From positions 1-38,054 of the forward strand of contig CAJVPI010000265.1 of NCBI GenBank assembly GCA_910592345.1: a DNA stretch of 38,054 nt. The letters are read 5' to 3'. This document shows positions 1-38,054 of the stretch, piece by piece (the stretch's first letter is position 1; each line of letters starts with the position of its first letter). The DNA is from Paraglomus brasilianum. Lineage: Eukaryota. The position numbers and the translations under genes were made by a program. The notes below the pieces were generated by a model. It saw nothing but the letters and a program-made list of their open reading frames with translations. It did no database searches and had not been told where the DNA came from.

Positions 1-831
1 GCTAACTCTCTTTTGTAAACATTAGCAATCTTTTCTTCGATTGATTCAAAGAAACCTAGTGGTTCGTTTTCTGCATAGTATCCTTTTGGTACAAATGCAT
101 AGTAATCACACACTTCACCTTCATTAAAAATTTCTGCTTCTGATTTTCTATTAATATATGGATCTTTGATTCTTTCGAAATAAATATCTGGTTCTTCTTC
201 AGCAGTATCATATTCTGAAGAAGCAGAGCTTCGATGTTCCACATCATCACTTGGTTCGCTATCTTTTTCATTATCTATTTCCATTAAATCATACCATTCT
301 TCACCAGTTTTAGGAATTGGTTTCGATCTAATTTTTTTATTATTTTTTATTTCCGGTTTTGATAACCATTTTATTAATTCATCTATTGTTAAAATTGATT
401 TCTTTTTTTGTTCTCCTTGAGTATTAGAACTTGATCCTGCTTCTGTATTTGGAATACCATCAGTTAAAAGGTTGACTGCCGGCGCGCTTGCCTCTCTCGG
501 CTGGGTTGGTTGGTGCGTCGGTGGGTTTTCGTCAAATGATATGAGATCGCCTTCCGGGGTCGGTGCTGGGTTTTCTACTGGGGCTTGGTTTTGCGTCTGA
601 ATCGGATATTCAGCTGGTGGTATATTTTGCGTCGGGGTTGGGTTTTCAGCCGGATTTTGAATAGGTGGATTTCCTATTGGAGCTTGAGGGGGGGGTTTGC
701 ATTAAACGCAAAGCTGGTTGACATTGTCCCTTACGAAGGTTTCCATTTAAATTCATGTGTTTATTAAGATCTCGGGTTTTACCAGTTCTTATTTCTCTAT
801 TACATCCTGGGCATCTGAGTATCTTTGCCAT
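1..831 (-). CDS. N-terminal ~276 aa of a large protein: CxxC...H...C zinc finger, Pro/Gln/Asn-rich linker, acidic tract; 1-nt frameshift at a C8 run; open to the window edge
   Basis: Starts MAKILRCPGCNREIRTGKTRDLNKHMNLNGNLRKGQC. Removing one base from the 8-G run at 688-695 joins it to a stop-free frame QAPIGNPPIQNPAENPTP...IDELIKWLSKP...PLGFFESIEEKIANVYKREL continuing to base 1. Confidence 0.65.
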
Positions 832-919
832 AATGATATATAATCTGTGTTTTTTATTAATATAACCAGATCTTTTGTTTAAATTAAAATAATTAATTCA
901 GTTATATAAATTTATCGAA

Positions 920-1183
920 ATGCTGATAGAATATACATGCGAATATATAGACAACTCTGGAAAATATATATGCGAATATATACACAACTCTGGAAAAGTT
1001 TGTGGACGCAAATGCCGACGTCGTGAAGGATGCTATGAACATTGGAGAGCTAAAAAACGTGTTTTATGTAAGGTTTGTGGAAAGCCTACTGCTTCTGCAC
1101 CGGGAACATGTAAAAAACATGCTAAAGGGTATTATGTTATGCAGTTTTATGCCCGACAGATGCAAAACATCCTTACTCCGTAA
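920..1183 (+). CDS. Small basic Cys/His-rich zinc-finger protein (87 aa)
   Basis: ATG start, intronless. Contains C-x9-C-x3-C-x5-C-x2-H followed by CxxC...CxxH, and an internal 33-bp tandem duplication (YTCEYIDNSGK/YICEYIHNSGK). Confidence 0.6.
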   Translation: MLIEYTCEYIDNSGKYICEYIHNSGKVCGRKCRRREGCYEHWRAKKRVLCKVCGKPTASAPGTCKKHAKGYYVMQFYARQMQNILTP

Positions 1184-1222
1184 GACTTCAGATTAGAAAT
1201 CAGCAAGAGCTGACATAAAATT

Positions 1223-2221
1223 TACACCGAAATTGTCCTAAAAAGTTTGCTATATTTTTTGTTATACTTTCTGCCTTTAGAAAACTAATAGAATGCTAAT
1301 GCTTCGTTTCACTTCGCATTTACAAAAAGCTAATTGTTGACTAAATAGATAACTAATGCGAAGCGTAGCGGAGCATTCGGAGTCGCTATGCTCCTCTAGA
1401 ACAGTAAACGTTTTAGTAATCGAATAAGATAACTATGCTCCGCTACGCTTCGCATTTGGAGTCGCTATGCTCCTCCGGGTCAGAAAGCTACATAGTAATC
1501 AAAATAAATACACCCATCGTGTACCTAAAATTTATTTTTTCCTTCGCACTTCACTTAAAAGTTCATGCTCACAGTAATAGAATGCTAATTAGTTAACAAA
1601 TAAGATAACAAAAAAAACACCAAACATGAATAAATCATTATTCATTTTGATGTCATAATAAGATTTAATCAACAAATATAGAGGATGTGCTCACAGTATT
1701 AGAAAGCTAAATATTGATAAAATATTATATTTAAAAAATACACCAAATAATTTTAATCGTTATTGATCTACTATCTGTTTTATTAATAGAAAGCTAAATG
1801 CTAACTAAAACAGATGACATGCTCCGCTTCGCTCCGCAACTGCGTCACACACACCTAAGGTGTGTGCTCCTTAGTTATTAGTGTTAGAAAGCTAATTGTG
1901 AACTAAACAGATATCTAATGCTCCGCTACGCTTCGCATTCGGAGTCGCTATGCTCCTCCTGGTCAGAAAGCTAAATAGTGATCAAATTGGATATCAAAAA
2001 AAACACCAATCATAAATCAATCATTATTCATTTTGATATTGTAATAAGTTTTAATCATTGAATACAGCAAAACATCAGTCATGTACCTAGAAAGCTAAAT
2101 AGAGATCAATAGGATATCAAAAAAAAATACACAAAAATAAAAATAATCATTATTGAATTTGATGTTGTGATAAGTTTTAATCATTGAATACACCAGAATA
2201 CACAGAAATTGTCCTAAAAAG
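1223..2221. repeat. Modular repeat and hairpin array bounded by 23-bp direct repeats
   Basis: TACAC(C/A)GAAATTGTCCTAAAAAG at 1223-1245 and 2199-2221. AGAAAGCTAA-like boxes near 1290, 1324, 1482, 1579, 1701, 1788, 1886, 1965, 2089. 23-bp hairpin cassettes at 1298, 1355, 1434, 1818, 1917. GGAGTCGCTATGCTCC occurs three times. Confidence 0.9.
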
Positions 2222-2239
2222 CCCACTAATATAATACTC

Positions 2240-2585
2240 CATTTGTTACCTTATTTAGGAGGGTTGGATAATCAAAATAATTATGTATTTCAAGATGACA
2301 ATGCTCAAATTCATTGAGCAAGGTCAACTTTGTGTTGGATTTCAGATAATAATATTGATCAACTTCCCTAGCCTGCACAAAGCCCCGACCTCAACCCTAT
2401 CAAGAATATTTGGGATGAATTAGAGCATCATATTCATAAGCACATTCCTCTACCAAAAAATGAAACTGAACTGTTCAATCTGTTGGTCTAACATAGATGA
2501 ATCAGTTTATGGAAATTTGGTTGAAAGTATGGAGTGCCATGTTCAAGCTGTAGTTAAAGCTAATAGGCATCCTACACCTTATTGA
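2240..2585 (+). pseudogene. Tc1-family (DD34E) transposase relic, C-terminal half
   Basis: HLLPYL...YVFQDDNAQIH*...LP*PAQSPDLNPIKNIWDELE...NLVESM...VQAVVKANRHPTPY*. 34 residues separate the second D from the mutated E(K) position; in-frame stops. Confidence 0.9.
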
Positions 2586-3172
2586 TAAAGTCAAATAAAC
2601 TTCATTGATGTGACATTTTGATAAAAAAAAACCTGATGTAAATTGCTATGTAGATTGTTGAGAATTTTGAACTTGAAATTTTATAAAAAAAATCGAGCAT
2701 TACTATATTCAGAAAAAAGTCCCATGACCCGTGTACATGATCAATAAAGAATTTATTTCTTACACATTACTTGATTGCTCCTTTGTATTTGCTATGATAA
2801 TGAGAAGACTGAATGAGTGACAGTTCAGGGTAGGGTGCTTTGCAAAACATTCTATCTATAATCCAGTTGACATTTAAACAGATTACATTATCACAAGTAT
2901 TGTGAATGTTAAGCTGGTTGCTCAATGCAAATAATTAAAAACCAATAAATATTTTGTGTTTGCTACAGGCAGCATGGAATGACCAAAAAGTCCTGACTTC
3001 ACCAGCTATGTTTTTTATTTTATAGCCACTTTCAAGAAAGGAACACATAAGTTGCTGGAAAAGAAGTGGCCCATAAACAAGTAACCCTATGGTCTGTGTG
3101 GGGGCTGTACCCATACCCAAGGTTGTTACTATTCAATAAGCAGCAAAGTCATAATAGGGTTCCAGGTATTAG

Positions 3173-11377: not shown

Positions 11378-12814
11378 TCATTCAACAACTTCTTTTTTGA
11401 AATCTTTAGCAGGATTCTTCTTCCTTGCAATTAATACAACTCTCTGACCCACTGTCTTGTGTTGTACAACTTCCTTTCTAAACTTTTCAACAAGTCTTCT
11501 CATCCCTTCCTCCCCATCTCCTCCGATTCCCAACCGCTCCCCGATCTCTTCCGAAAATCTCATCAGAATTCCGCACAAATCATCCAACCATCGGATAGCC
11601 TCAATGTCACTTATGGATCCTAGTTTTATTTTCTGTGCGGTTACTTGAACACATTCTAGTTGCGGATATGACTCGAGTGTGGGAACAAGTTTAGTGCGTG
11701 GAGATGGTGATAGGCCCAAGGATAGTGTTAAATGGTTCAAGGCTGTATTGCGAAAGAAGGAAATATAGAATAAGTAACGAATAAATTGCGTGCTCTACAA
11801 CACATTCTGCCTGCATACTCCCTTTGATTCTCCTTTTCTCGTCCAACTCACCTTCTTTAATTATCCTTTCACTGTACATTCCCAAATTTGCCAGTTCTAA
11901 ATCATTTTCAGCGATTTCTATCCATCCTCCAGGCTTTGTAACTCTAATCAATTCCGTCACAACATAGTCCAATTTACTTGTAGGAATACTCAGTCCCATC
12001 CCGCTCATATGCACAAAATCGAAATAGTCGTTTTGGAGAGGTAGAGGGAAAAGAGTGTGACACGGGATGAAGGAAGTGTTTGGGGGAGACGTGAGAATGG
12101 AAGGCGATGGAAGAGACGTCGAAAATGAGGTACGGTATAATGGCATGGAGGGTGTAGATGGTGGTGAAGATGGGAGGGGAGGGAGTGTTGATTCGTTTGA
12201 AATGTATGGAAACGAGTAACAATGAGACAATGAAAGTGAGTCGATTCCGCAAAAGTGAGACCATCTGTATTTGGTTGCGTTCGATAAGACCCAATCACCT
12301 CTTACGCAACTGGGAAAAGGGAGGGGGTGTTAGTTAGATATTAGAAAATCCAACTTTCATGTAATGCACTAGTATTAACTTTTTGATTTACTTACCCAAC
12401 GTCTAATACTCTTGCTTGCCCAGACTCCATTTTTCCTTCCACAGGCGCAGTGAATCCACCTTCGTTTTGTATTCTCATTACTAGTCTTATTATACAATTA
12501 TCGTCTTCATTTTGCTTCTTGATATTCTTAGAGTCTCCTCTGCTCTCGGCGTTATTCATGGGAGAATTAAGTATTTTTTGCCCCAACGGCAACTGACTTC
12601 TATCATTTCTAAACACATTAGGTAGATTTGATTCATTACTTTCGTCCGGGTTCTCCGGACGGTTTATTTTGATTTTGTTTTTGTTCTTGATTTTAGTTTT
12701 TACATCGTCTTCGTTGCTACGTAGGTTTATAGTGGATGGTGATAGAGGAGGTTGAAGTATGTACAAGTCTGTTGAAGTGTCGTCTATGGTAGTTCTTGAA
12801 CAGCAAGAGCCCAT
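11378..12814 (-). CDS. Class I SAM-dependent methyltransferase-like protein (LaeA-like fungal family), 3 exons
   Basis: Exons 12814-12396, 12309-11852, 11742-11378 with GT-AG introns. Motifs ARVLDVGCVRGDW, HFCGID, LPLQNDYFDFVHM, ELIRVTKPGGWIEIAE, VVLIARK. N-terminus MGSCCS. Confidence 0.85.
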
Positions 12815-13912
12815 TTGGAGGGAGTGCGAGATTTGATGTAAAACGGGTGGGATTAGGAATTTTTTTGGTTCTGGGCTTTTGAATTTTTTCTATGGTAAAA
12901 CGAGTGGTATTCTTGGCTGGTGCGATAATGGACCTGAGAGAATGTATATTCGATTTTATTCGACAGTGGGCGGTTTGTTCGTTATTTTGTTTCTAATGGC
13001 CTTAATGCACCAAGTCCCGATACTATATATCAGTAACAAACATATGACCGAAAACTCTTTGCAAATAGATATTCTTTGAAAGTCATAAATTCGACCATGC
13101 ATACGAGTAACCCACATATTTATGTAAAAACATTCGGTCCTACTTCTCGCAGGGCTGTGCATTTACGAATTAGATGTACTTCCGTATATGCTTTTTTGAC
13201 GTAAAATTAGAGTTCATGTGTAGCATATAAGCTATTAATAACAAATGATGAGATTTTGTGGTACCCGCCATTTTGCGAGTTTACCCTTTGCGACGCCTGT
13301 TTGTCATTCGTTCTTTTCTTGGCTGATGGCGTCTTATTGGGTAACCTTACCCTGATCGACGAGAAGACCGATAGCGCCCCGATTGTGAGCATATAGATGT
13401 GTGTCAAAATAAATAGATAAAGAACAAACAATACGAACCCTGTCTATGTTACGTTGATTAGATAATTGTGGTAGTTACGACGGGTTATTTACAATCATTA
13501 AATTACAAATCATTACACCGAGAGGGTGGGGTTAAGATAAGTGTTTAACGGCAATGCGGGTATATCTCTGTCTATAATTTGATATCATTAGAAAGTATGC
13601 AATTGATCACAGGTGCTACTTTATCGAGTTTTTGCTTACGAAAGTGCTATAGGATTTATGCCTTTGCAGCTTCGGCGTTTGGATTTATTTGGTAAACAAT
13701 CCGTACATGAATGAGACTGTACCTGCATCAGCCGGGCATGTGTCAATTCATAACCAGTCTTCTAATGCCGGTCAGAAATTAAAAATTCGATTGTTCGGGA
13801 ATCCTTAAAAAAGAGGGTTAAACTGCTTATTCATGGTAACAACTAGACCGTTCTACAAGACAATACTTGTCTAATTCGAGGCTTTGATTTTTAAATGCAA
13901 ACGCTGAGTGTT

Positions 13913-18827: not shown

Positions 18828-21119
18828 TTATTCAAACTTAATTCCTTGAGCCAATGGCAAGATTCCAGAATAGTTTATAGTACAAGTAGCTCGTCGCATA
18901 TACTATCACGATAATAATAATTATTATTCGTTAATGCGCAATGTTAGATGTAAATCAAGGAACAATTTTTTGCGAGAAGTGTATCTAAAACGAACCTGCT
19001 TCCAACTATCCGAACCAGCCTCACGGCCTCCACCTGTTTCTTTTTCTCCTCCAAAGGCACCGCCTATTTCGGCGCCATTCGTTGGGACATTTATGTTGAC
19101 TATGCCTGAATCAGCACCCGCTGGACTGTAATAAGAATCGAGCGTGTTTTTAACGGGCTGACACGCCACTTGTTCAAGCATATACGTCGTAAAAATACTA
19201 ATATCTTACCCAATCCACTTGAATATATTTTCCGGTTTAGTCGTAAATAAGCTACTACTCAAGCCTTGCTTAACCGAGTTATTCATAGCTATAGCATCAT
19301 CGAGTTCCTATCCAAAAAACCTGTATTAGATACTCCACTACATTGACGGCACTCTAAACCATGTTACTTTCTGTGATATAATTTAACTCACCGTAAATTT
19401 GAATACATGAAGAATGGGCACAAATATCTCATTCTGCACTACTGGCGCATCATGAGATATACGCGTCAAAGTGGGTACGACATAATTACCCTTTAGATCG
19501 TCTAAAACTTGTCCACCAAAGATAATCTCTCCATTCTGGTCCAAGACATCTTTTATTCCTTTCCTATAAGCATTCACAGCAGCCTTTGTATGTAATGGTC
19601 CACATAAAACTCCTGCCTCAAGCGGATTACCTATCTTGACCTGCGTATACGCCTTGACCAGTTTCTCAAGAAATTCGTCATAAATCGCTTCGTGTAAAAA
19701 CAGCCTTCTAGTAGTAGTACACCTCTGGCCAGCGGTACCAACAGCAGCGAAAAGTACGCTTCTCAAAGCTAACACCTGATCCGCATCATCCATTACAATA
19801 ATGGCATTATTACCCCCCAACTCCAGCAAACACTTTCCAAATCTTTCCTGCACTATCTGTCCCACACGCCGCCCAACTGCAGTACTTCCAGTAAAGCTAA
19901 CAAGATTGACACGACTATCTTCAGCGATAGCCTCACCGACATCAGCACCACCGCAAACGAGGGAGCAGATGGAACCGGGGAGGGCATTGCGGGAGAGAAC
20001 ACTAGAGAGTAGCTTAGTCACGGCAACAGATGTAAGGTTGGTGGTCGGTGAGCCTTTCCATATTACCGGATTGCCACAAACGAGCGAAATGGCCGAGTTC
20101 CAGCCATAGACGGCTACTGGAAAGTTGAAAGCAGTTATTACGCCCACAATACCAAGCGGGTTCCATTGCTCGGCCATAAAGTGACCTGGTCCTGAATTTT
20201 GGAAATGACATGGTAGACAGATTAGTAGACGAAAGAAATCCTGTAATTGTAAACTATTTTAATGTATAATATGCATCGTATAATACCATATGAAGCACAG
20301 AATATACTATGTAATACGTAAGATTCACAATAAACGAATATAGAACGGACGTTTGTTAGCCGCACGTACGTACGTTTCTGCTAAACGTGCATCATCATTA
20401 CAAAAACACTTACTCTCACTAGGTAATATCTTTCCGCTAAACATCCGACTCAAACCAACAGCATAGTCCGTCATGTCAATGTATTCCTGCACCTCTCCGC
20501 TACCCTCTGGCAATATTTTACCCATTTCCAACGAAACGAGTTTACCCAAATCTTCGCGTTTGGCGAATAGCGCATCACGCATTTGACGGACTATTTCACC
20601 TCTTTGAGGAGCCGGGAGCTGATAAAGCAATAATAATAATAATAAATAAATAAATTACAGATTGAGATTGAGGTTGAGACCCAAAGTGTTGGGACTATAT
20701 CTTTGATGTGTTACCTGGGACCAAACGTGTTTCGCTTCTTCAACTTTTTCCATTGTTTCTGCTAAATCCTTGGTTGTACCCTGTGAGACAAATTGACTTA
20801 GCGATAATCCGTCTCCAATGACTTGCTATTTAAATTAATGAAATAAAAGAAACAGACAACTCACCACTCTAACTCTTCCTAACACTGTTCCATCGATCGG
20901 GCTAATTGATTCCACAACTTCTCCGCTGCCACCCCAAGATCCGTTATAGACTCCATAGTTCTCTTCTCCCAAGTCAAGTGCCGCCAATAAATCCTTATGT
21001 GTTGTCGAGTATTTACGCGTCTTAAGAGATAAATTTAAATTGTACGCAGGAAAAACAGGTATTCTAGTGTTCAGGTAAGGTTGAGAGGCTAGAGAGAGAT
21101 AACGGAGACGGAAACCCAT
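18828..21119 (-). CDS. ALDH7A1: Aldehyde dehydrogenase family 7 (alpha-aminoadipic semialdehyde dehydrogenase/antiquitin), 7 exons, probable mitochondrial presequence
   Basis: [19 protein letters not shown], catalytic ELGGNNA and [29 protein letters not shown]-terminus [24 protein letters not shown]. Confidence 0.96.
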
Positions 21120-25859: not shown

Positions 25860-27141
25860 AAGTATCTTAACAAAAAATGATGTCAGAGCATCCGGAGGTG
25901 TTGATATTAGACTTAGTTGCTTTCTTTCAAACTATCGTTCAGCTTCATCAACTACTTTATTTTAATCTTGTTTAGTTCCTTTCCTAATTCCGCAAGAGAC
26001 TTCTATAATTGCACATAAATTAATAAATTAACATAATATATTTATATTTACTACATTCATGCTCTCCTTACCTGTGATAGACAGTTCAGCCACCTCTCTA
26101 CTGGTTGTAGTTGTTCCAGAATAGTCCAATCACTTCCAAATTTTCCATATGCCAACAGACTTGGGAATATTTAATATTGTATTTAGCTCAGATAATCCTG
26201 TTTTGGATAACTCCCATTTTACTAATATGGCAATATCTGACATCTCCATTATTTGCCAAAATAAGGCCTGTCAAAAGAAAAGAGAAATGAGACTGAAAAT
26301 TTATGTTAAAGCATCAAATGCAAAATATATACCCGTCAGTATGTAATATGGGATTTTCAGCTAATGTTTCATACTGATTAATTATTTCTGTAGCCCATGG
26401 AATCAAACTCCCAACATATGTCTTCCTTATTCTTAATCTTAAAGTTGAAAGAATGATTTAGTATTAGTGAAATGCTAGAGGTGCAAGCAGAATCATGTAT
26501 CCTAACCTTGAATGATGTAATTCTCTGGGCTTTATTGTCAGTAGCCTCATAGTTAGGTTTTGTGCTATCAATATAGTCCTTCCTAACCTATGAGCAAGAG
26601 CATCAATAGACTCAATATGACTTAACCATATACTCTGCACTGTTACAGGTGATTCTGCTTGTCTCGCAGCAATATGTGCAAACCAGATTGCCTGATAAGC
26701 TATTGCTTTGAAGTAGCAGAATTGTCGTTGGCTCATTTCATAGCAGACCACATCTACATAGTACTAGAAAAGGAACGTCAAACAAGCAGTTCATCACTGG
26801 CAACTAGCAGTCCCAGCTTGCACTCGAAAAGGAAGCATCGAACATGCAGTTCATCACTAGCAACTAGCAGTCCCAGCTTGCGCTACGTTGAACATAAACA
26901 AGCAAGTTCATCACTGGCAACTAGCGGTCCCAGCTTGCGTTTAAAAAACAACTAATAACTACCTTCCAGCGGTCAAGGCTTTTCTGCTAAATCCGGAATC
27001 TGAAGCTGTGATGTCTCGAAGATTCTTTTTTACTTTATCAAGTACATATTTCCAATCTTTTCGTTCCAGCTTATCACGATAATACTTTACTATATTAGCA
27101 CACGTCCAGTCTATAAATGTGGTATGGCGATAAAAATCCAT
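25860..27141 (-). pseudogene. Decayed member of an expanded Glomeromycotina-type gene family (effector/REase-like)
   Basis: N-terminus MDFYRHTTFIDWTCANIVKYYRDKL...VKKNL resembles helical header domains of AM-fungal hypothetical proteins. Downstream frames are broken by stops and frameshifts, with remnant GT-AG introns. Family call is from recall only. Confidence 0.4.
26765..26939. repeat. ~60-bp tandem repeat, 3 copies
   Basis: Core AGTTCATCACTRGCAACTAGCRGTCCCAGCTTGC in units starting near 26781, 26841, 26897. Confidence 0.9.
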
Positions 27142-37925: not shown

Positions 37926-37977
37926 CTGCAATAAAATTACAATAGACCGATTTGTAACTCGTTTCAGTAAAGTGTAA

Positions 37978-38054
37978 GCGATTGAGTAATGCGATTGAGT
38001 AATGCGATTGAGTAATGCGATTGAGTAATGCGATTGAGTAATGCGATTGAGTAA
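37978..38054. repeat. (GCGATTGAGTAAT)n 13-bp minisatellite running to the window end
   Basis: About 6 perfect units. Confidence 0.95.

Follow-up and report, generated by a model that had tools for sequence, protein, structure and literature searches.

The closest functional parallel to the locus described here is the telomere of Streptomyces. Excerpts of PMC5449611 describe, for linear chromosomes and plasmids, a protein-primed linear replicon with packed palindromes, whose GNA loops are closed by sheared G·A pairs, act on the single strand and are thought to be nuclease-resistant; the array reported below resembles, or would resemble, it in all these respects. In Streptomyces, however, the hairpins lie on a 3' overhang at the very end and guide patching by Tap and Tpg without a B-family polymerase (PMC5449611, excerpts), whereas here they lie on the 5'-terminal strand, begin about 200 nt inside, include tandem GA/GA motifs and GNA/GNA zippers, and belong to a eukaryotic integrating element. 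The likeness probably reflects convergence. The same triloop, d(GCGNAGC), has been reported at the phage G4 and ssiA origins and at N4 promoters, where an action on single-stranded DNA has also been proposed; these are single sites read by primase or RNA polymerase, in contrast to the many repeated modules found here (PMC13037366, excerpts).

The host element is likely, though not proven, to be a Polinton/Maverick of Glomeromycota. Polintons are characterised in portions of PMC10748475, PMC6431247 and PMC8969392 by a polymerase of the B family and an integrase of the rve type, together with 5-8-bp target-site duplications and terminal inverted repeats measuring 100-1,500 bp. A Polinton is known from Rhizophagus (Glomus) intraradices, with no capsid gene detected (PMC7805220, in part), fungal polymerases of the Polinton class form a cluster of their own (PMC8502044, in part), and Mavericks have been called expanded exclusively in Glomerales (PMC11952901, in part). 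In contrast to the last statement, the close polymerase homologs obtained here came from many genera outside Glomerales. The element shares with Polintons/Mavericks a protein-primed polymerase B with an endonuclease VII insert in its relatives, a candidate rve-like integrase at a related end, a terminal region whose length falls in the range of their terminal inverted repeats, and integration at many sites (PMC7805220, PMC11952901 and PMC10748475, in part). Its terminal region combines a small Cys/His gene with an array of hairpin modules of four types, predicted to be held by sheared G·A pairs. No description of such hairpin arrays in Polinton ends was found in the literature searched (most subscription papers lay outside the search, as did Repbase and paper supplements, which may already hold these ends), and the passages obtained from PMC11296320 and PMC4443254 held nothing on these hairpins.

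The DNA analysed was a stretch of 38,054 nt from Paraglomus brasilianum (contig CAJVPI010000265.1), called the window below. Its left edge carries on the minus strand the N-terminal part of a protein-primed polymerase B gene (3-831). The gene begins at 831, has a frameshift near 687-696 and is cut by the window edge. By tblastn, positions 831-697 matched amino acids 1-45 of proteins P0019/P0020 at 91%, and positions 662-3 matched amino acids 43-244 at 75% in another frame. For the minus frame at the left edge 34 longer homologs were found, 33 of them named from glomeromycotan genera; the genera with polymerase homologs include Entrophospora, Diversispora, Dentiscutata, Acaulospora, Ambispora, Gigaspora, Paraglomus, Cetraspora and Racocetra. 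In these homologs an endonuclease VII insert was found along with motifs of polymerase B. P0020 aligned to P0088 with an E value of 2e-62, and P0088 carries PF03175 above the cut-off, while the close homologs of the window polymerase themselves fall below that cut-off. The C-terminal half of P0043, one of the homologs, matched 1,481 proteins at E values up to 1e-20, many of them with PF03175 and PF02945. No sequence match to P0043 was found in PDB, and the mean pLDDT of its AlphaFold model was 37.6.

Eleven related loci of 1.2-5.6 kb were collected by scanning metagenome contigs with a pattern that accepts the core described below in either orientation. As L034/L044 and L040/L043 are near-duplicates, these loci and the window represent at most 10 independent groups. 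The array layout and the leaders were the same in all 11 loci. Protein-led scans found no related locus in the viral contigs or genomes searched, and no genes for a packaging ATPase, a protease or a capsid were seen in the 1.2-5.6 kb covered by each locus.

The array is preceded by a small gene that points outward (920-1183, plus strand) and encodes a Cys/His-rich, putatively zinc-binding protein of 87 amino acids. Seventeen homologs of this protein were found, the named ones from Diversispora, Gigaspora and Cetraspora; in the protein atlas it matched only unnamed Mucoromycota clusters, and no convincing family was found for it. Within the small gene of the window a 33-nt duplication was observed (930-997), where many related contigs hold a single copy. 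The gene precedes the array in eight of the 11 loci, at polymerase-type as well as integrase-type ends; L036 and the plus half of L042 have arrays without it directly upstream. Inward of the small gene the polymerase N-terminus was found in five loci and a candidate integrase in one (L041). The rve-like integrase of L041, which lies on another molecule than the window polymerase, was recognised with an E value of 1.9e-6 and a score of 28.5 bits against a Pfam cut-off of 32.6. Positions 837-910, the small gene and the array are common to the window and to L041, although the inward gene is not the same.

Some observations were made on neighbouring reading frames. The integrase of L041 adjoins a gene for a 745-aa coiled-coil protein (498-2732, minus strand) with a weak, Gag-like zinc-knuckle match. 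In L040 (1320-3020, plus strand), as in L043 and L044, the N-terminal 100 or so amino acids of the polymerase run into a different ORF, which in L040 has a weak PF03175 match and an F-box. P0046 carries the same polymerase N-terminus on another unrelated protein. The ends thus seem to be common to elements with swapped cargo.

The element ends at 2238, with a conserved terminal box (2210-2238, plus strand). The plus strand closes with CT-3' at this position, so the minus strand begins with 5'-AG (5'-AGT here). The box recurs farther inside, at 1223-1245 (direct repeat D11). The box and the CT end, followed by unrelated flanks, were found in the window and in seven of the 11 loci. Among the remaining four, the contig breaks off within the array in two, one locus is interrupted, and another unites two arrays. 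All eight ends thus available read 5'-AG and have unrelated flanks, and contigs from public runs break away from the window at 2238-2239. The termini 5'-AG ... CT-3' are presumably the Polinton hallmark; both polymerase homology and 5'-AG ends were found in this element. A clean terminal tandem repeat of 1-3 bp, as mentioned in part of PMC4196379, was not obvious at these ends. Between the polymerase gene and the end lies a putative terminal inverted repeat of about 1.4 kb (837-2238), made up of the small gene and the array and compatible in length with the Polinton range of 100-1,500 bp; it is found on the outward side of the polymerase in five of 11 loci, as in the window, and on the outward side of the rve-like integrase in one. 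Its repeat nature was inferred, since the two ends never occurred on one contig.

A Helitron 3' end was considered and rejected. The hairpin of a Helitron lies 10-12 nt inside its 3' end and insertion occurs before T (PMC4196379, in part), whereas the nearest hairpin here is 200-284 nt from the end and the next base was A, C or G in eight of eight cases. L042 (185-1368) holds two terminal arrays that point towards one another and are fused without their CT ends, which represents a rearrangement or a chimeric contig. Directly to the right of the element end in the window, at about 2250-2590, lies a broken transposase remnant with several stops and frameshifts, which we take from its motifs to be Tc1/mariner-like; the element was therefore likely inserted into or beside another transposon.

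The array itself extends over about 1 kb (1279-2238) and consists of AT-rich leaders alternating with hairpin modules of four types, A to D. Each of its units begins at a AGAAAGCTA-like anchor word. In six of the eight ends 200-206 nt separate the last hairpin from the terminus, and in the two with internal duplications 282-284 nt. A preliminary description of this DNA had considered the cassettes now called module A, and had overlooked that they belong to a modular array at a mobile element's end, and that the motif downstream of them is itself a predicted hairpin. Its observations on the letters were borne out. The segments 1355-1377 and 1917-1939 are exact reverse complements over 23 nt, the near-exact second partner reported at 1434 matches 1355-1377 over 22 nt (1435-1456), the flanks around the copies at 1355 and 1917 provide the same context, and the 13-nt core (1360-1372) is reversed between its arms in the copy at 1355-1377. 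This copy, read on the plus strand, was the only inverted one found. The other four copies lie on the minus strand: the commonest allele, GAA-GTA-GGA, at 1434-1456 and at 1917-1939, the allele GGA-GAA-GGA at 1818-1840, and the variant GAA-GAA-GAA at 1298-1320. The last two keep the GNA register on the minus strand, as had been claimed. In the variant at 1298, which also occurs in L042, the inner stem is changed to GT/AC by a compensated change of C-G to T-A.

With up to three mismatches, the 17-nt core had four matches in the 38-kb window against 0.01 expected, and none of 100 shuffles reached four; the downstream 16-mer had three exact matches against 0.07 expected. All of these copies lie between 1298 and 1960, and a scan with the core 17-mer and the downstream 16-mer found no cassette in the remaining 36 kb of the window. 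The 21-nt cassette had no exact match in the viral contigs searched, and the 22-nt cassette pattern had none in the prokaryote genomes searched.

For the conservation of module A 39 cores were counted, 34 from the 11 metagenome loci and five from the window, with up to five mismatches from the seed admitted and cores cut to fewer than three triplets left out. Read on the strand that begins at the element end, 110 of the 117 triplets were GNA (GAA 41, GGA 38, GTA 31 and GCA 0), which agrees with the earlier proposal that substitutions preserve the GNA loops. Five alleles occurred in at least two locus groups; these vary at N only, apart from one C-G to T-A pair that is changed on both sides. 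Seven alleles were limited to one group. Two of these are truncated units, and the non-N changes in the other five are transitions at CpG sites.

The overlapping mini-hairpins first proposed for the cassette fared less well. The covariation score of a fold into two mini-hairpins was reached by 259 of 500 shuffles, and this fold was rejected as unsupported, whereas the score of a single hairpin was reached by only 10 of 500. On this modest evidence module A is more likely to fold as one hairpin, predicted to consist of an outer stem, GNA opposite GNA, a 2-bp stem and a GNA loop. Zippers of purines flanked by sheared G·A pairs have been described before (PMC11014236, in part).

The three further hairpin types, B, C and D, are predicted to carry tandem GA/GA pairs on the strand that bears the GNA triplets of module A. 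Module B (1378-1398, 1457-1477 and 1940-1960, all on the minus strand) is predicted to form a stem, a tandem GA/GA, a 2-bp GC stem and an ATA triloop; the copy at 1940-1960 is the outermost hairpin, about 280 nt from the element end. Its sequence is nearly invariant, in part by ascertainment, with one compensated pair, and its covariation, in a module that was part of the locus search pattern, was not above that of shuffles. Module C (1840-1876, minus strand) is a predicted 9-bp stem-loop closed by a GA/GA motif. Module D (1539-1574, minus strand) is predicted to form a hairpin that has a TTTA loop and contains two tandem GA/GA motifs; the window copy shows a compensated inner pair and a decayed outer stem. 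Among 12 copies of module D (nine distinct) four of 11 pairs were changed on both sides and 90.9% of the cells were paired, while the four A's of the GA/GA motifs were invariant in all 12. The covariation score of module D was reached by none of 500 shuffles and the number of pairs changed on both sides by 39 of 500, for a structure drawn from the same sequences as were tested.

The strand bias was pronounced. GCGNAGC occurred 98 times on the 5'-terminal strand and three times on the other, and these three belong to the inverted core. A motif-blind scan for two-by-two internal loops gave 30, of which 27 were GA/GA on the 5'-terminal strand; the 27 are not independent, since most come from module B, on which the search pattern was partly built. 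In the array of the window alone three of four such loops were GA/GA, and 200 shuffles gave none; GCGNAGC was observed nine times there against at most two in the same number of shuffles. The strand specificity is nevertheless not absolute, because the complementary pyrimidine loop of GCGGAGC has been reported to be equally stable (PMC5449611, excerpts).

What these hairpins might do can be approached from the polymerase. In protein-primed strand displacement, as in adenovirus and phi29, initiation displaces the strand whose 5' end lies at the end where it takes place. Replication of the present element would start at the element end and displace the GNA strand, which has its 5' terminus at that point. 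This strand would be compacted and protected by hairpins with sheared G·A pairs. Such hairpins would exist in the living cell, withstand nucleases and have little affinity for single-strand binding protein (SSB), and the hairpin-free outer 200 nt would stay free to anneal into a panhandle. GNA mini-hairpins have been reported to resist nucleases and to bind SSB poorly (PMC13037366, excerpts), and a single-stranded racket intermediate is part of a proposed Polinton model (PMC4196379, in part). A single-stranded intermediate is plausible here because the cassettes are tied to one element with a protein-primed polymerase. Since the displaced strand would be the GNA strand, a racket intermediate has been proposed and GNA hairpins are nuclease-resistant, the array probably folds and protects the displaced strand and leaves the outer 200 nt available for pairing with the opposite end.

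A more far-reaching version is put forward tentatively and is rather doubtful as a whole. The array might be a eukaryotic counterpart of the structured telomere of Streptomyces, in which a kilobase of sheared-G·A hairpin code would fold the displaced strand without SSB and be read by the small Cys/His protein, whose gene lies within the putative terminal repeat, with the racket intermediate handed to the polymerase or the integrase. If true, this would provide a sequence-level footprint of the long-postulated single-stranded Polinton intermediate. To our knowledge, the Polinton replication model derives from gene content and has little direct support; strand-biased non-Watson-Crick hairpins with compensatory changes would be evidence of a selected single-stranded intermediate. 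The modules give short oligonucleotides that could be tested at once, and the arrays would serve as a DNA marker for a Maverick family with polymerase homologs in many mycorrhizal genera outside Glomerales.

The main rival to protection of the displaced strand is that the modules are double-stranded binding sites homogenised by slippage, such as origin or integrase iterons or promoter elements. The constancy of the GNA triplets would then come from recognition and slippage, and folding would be incidental or limited to cruciforms. Slippage among the 5-nt repeats could indeed also shift GNA triplets as units. The spacing of the leaders fits such sites: 43 successive spacings of RCTAW in 12 arrays were 11 or 12 nt, the two commonest values. 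The near-invariance of module B, subject to its ascertainment, and the reported ability of both strands of one triplet to fold (PMC5449611, excerpts) point the same way, and ViennaRNA found no unusual stability in 10 folds (z -1.72 to +0.67). The ViennaRNA energy model, however, is not known to cover sheared pairs. Plain recognition of duplex DNA, on the other hand, would not lead one to expect the compensated pair in each of modules A and B; in module D stem pairs changed on both sides while the A's of the GA/GA motifs stayed fixed, and the mismatches have not been corrected to perfect palindromes. Duplex binding sites are thus regarded as unlikely.

The preliminary description had also considered mobile double-hairpin elements, and cassettes that are selfish mini-elements of a double-hairpin, MITE- or satellite-like kind might accumulate in element ends. 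Depth over the core exceeded that of the window-type contig about 25- to 70-fold, but contig depth does not measure copy number and is raised by other subfamilies as well. Also in favour of this reading are the arrays of L036 and of the plus half of L042, which lack the small gene directly upstream, and the occurrence of the core 17-mer by itself in 24 unrelated viral stretches. Mobile double-hairpin elements show dispersed insertions independent of a parent element. Here every copy found, both in the window and in all 11 loci, is situated inside the array, with the same leaders; seven of the loci reach the same end, and the other 36 kb of the window hold no copy. The cassettes found are tied to one element, and a selfish origin appears very improbable. 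A role of the structures in RNA, with an inward transcript in the polymerase sense folding the hairpins, was rated slightly lower still: the GNA strand has the same sense as the polymerase gene, and tandem G·A pairs are also found in RNA, but a GNA triloop with a C-G closing pair is a motif of DNA (PMC13037366, excerpts) and no Rfam match was obtained at E values up to 0.1.

The inversion that first drew attention to the locus is ordinary. The inverted core was present in contigs of runs X1 and X2, possibly the source sample of the window, and of the soil metagenomes X5, X6 and X7 from a second study; runs X12-X24, with small word shares, were left out of this comparison. Its presence in the second study indicates that the inverted copy is real and no assembly artefact. 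In each of X1, X2 and X7 it was crossed by one unbroken contig, which in X1 was 500 nt long and showed no differences. The depth was 616 over the inverted and about 43,600 over the normal core in X1, and 7.8 against about 200 in X7, figures that are not copy numbers and come from contigs, which drop rare variants. A common second isomer is unlikely, since it should have broken these unbroken contigs. L042, which is 89% identical to window positions 851-1456, carries the orthologous core in normal orientation, and altogether one of 39 cores was inverted. The reversed core is likely a single micro-inversion fixed in one subfamily, which would have arisen by template switching between the short arms. 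A GGA-to-TAC difference, taken at first as a partial inversion, is better read as a normal-orientation paralog gap-aligned to the inverted copy. Small inversions inside stem-loops occur in plastid spacers, where the loop has likewise been flipped between short arms complementary to each other and has become fixed in a single lineage; here, in contrast, the inversion moves GNA loops to the opposite strand. At 1355-1394 the inversion also allows the flipped core to pair with module B in a newly formed Watson-Crick stem of 7 bp, which is the best predicted fold of this segment.

Flip and flop forms, in which a loop sequence exists as two reverse complements, are known from the telomeres of poxviruses and parvoviruses. 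An alternation of the core between two such isomers during hairpin-mediated replication, as had been suggested, would fit the exact inversion between 5-nt arms in identical context and its presence in two studies. It is nevertheless very improbable, the least likely of the readings, because the forms are not near 1:1 among the contigs, the cores sit 300-940 nt within a terminus that adjoins host DNA and not in a covalently closed terminal hairpin, the contigs over the inverted core are unbroken, the ortholog in L042 is normal and the polymerase of the element is protein-primed.

Related hairpins were seen in viral contigs. In L001 and L003-L007, at about 990-1030, hairpins with a long perfect stem have the same 8-nt centre as module B, and many further viral matches contain the core 17-mer between inverted arms or within GNA-rich runs. 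L017 and L029 are one viral contig of 330,611 nt with a cluster of GNA-type pentamers and the same 17-mer near both ends; the clusters lie 1.3-1.5 kb from each contig end in inverted orientation and are possibly a convergent terminal motif.

The window looks fungal, judged by the homologs of the small gene and of the polymerase. Between 11378 and 36719 host-like genes broken by introns were recognised by eye, with an aldehyde dehydrogenase (19383-20654) and a methyltransferase-like gene (11691-12889) as candidates. A 60-nt repeat with 2.9 copies was found at 26767-26938, and a 13-nt tandem repeat with 6.3 copies at 37974-38054 reaches the right edge.
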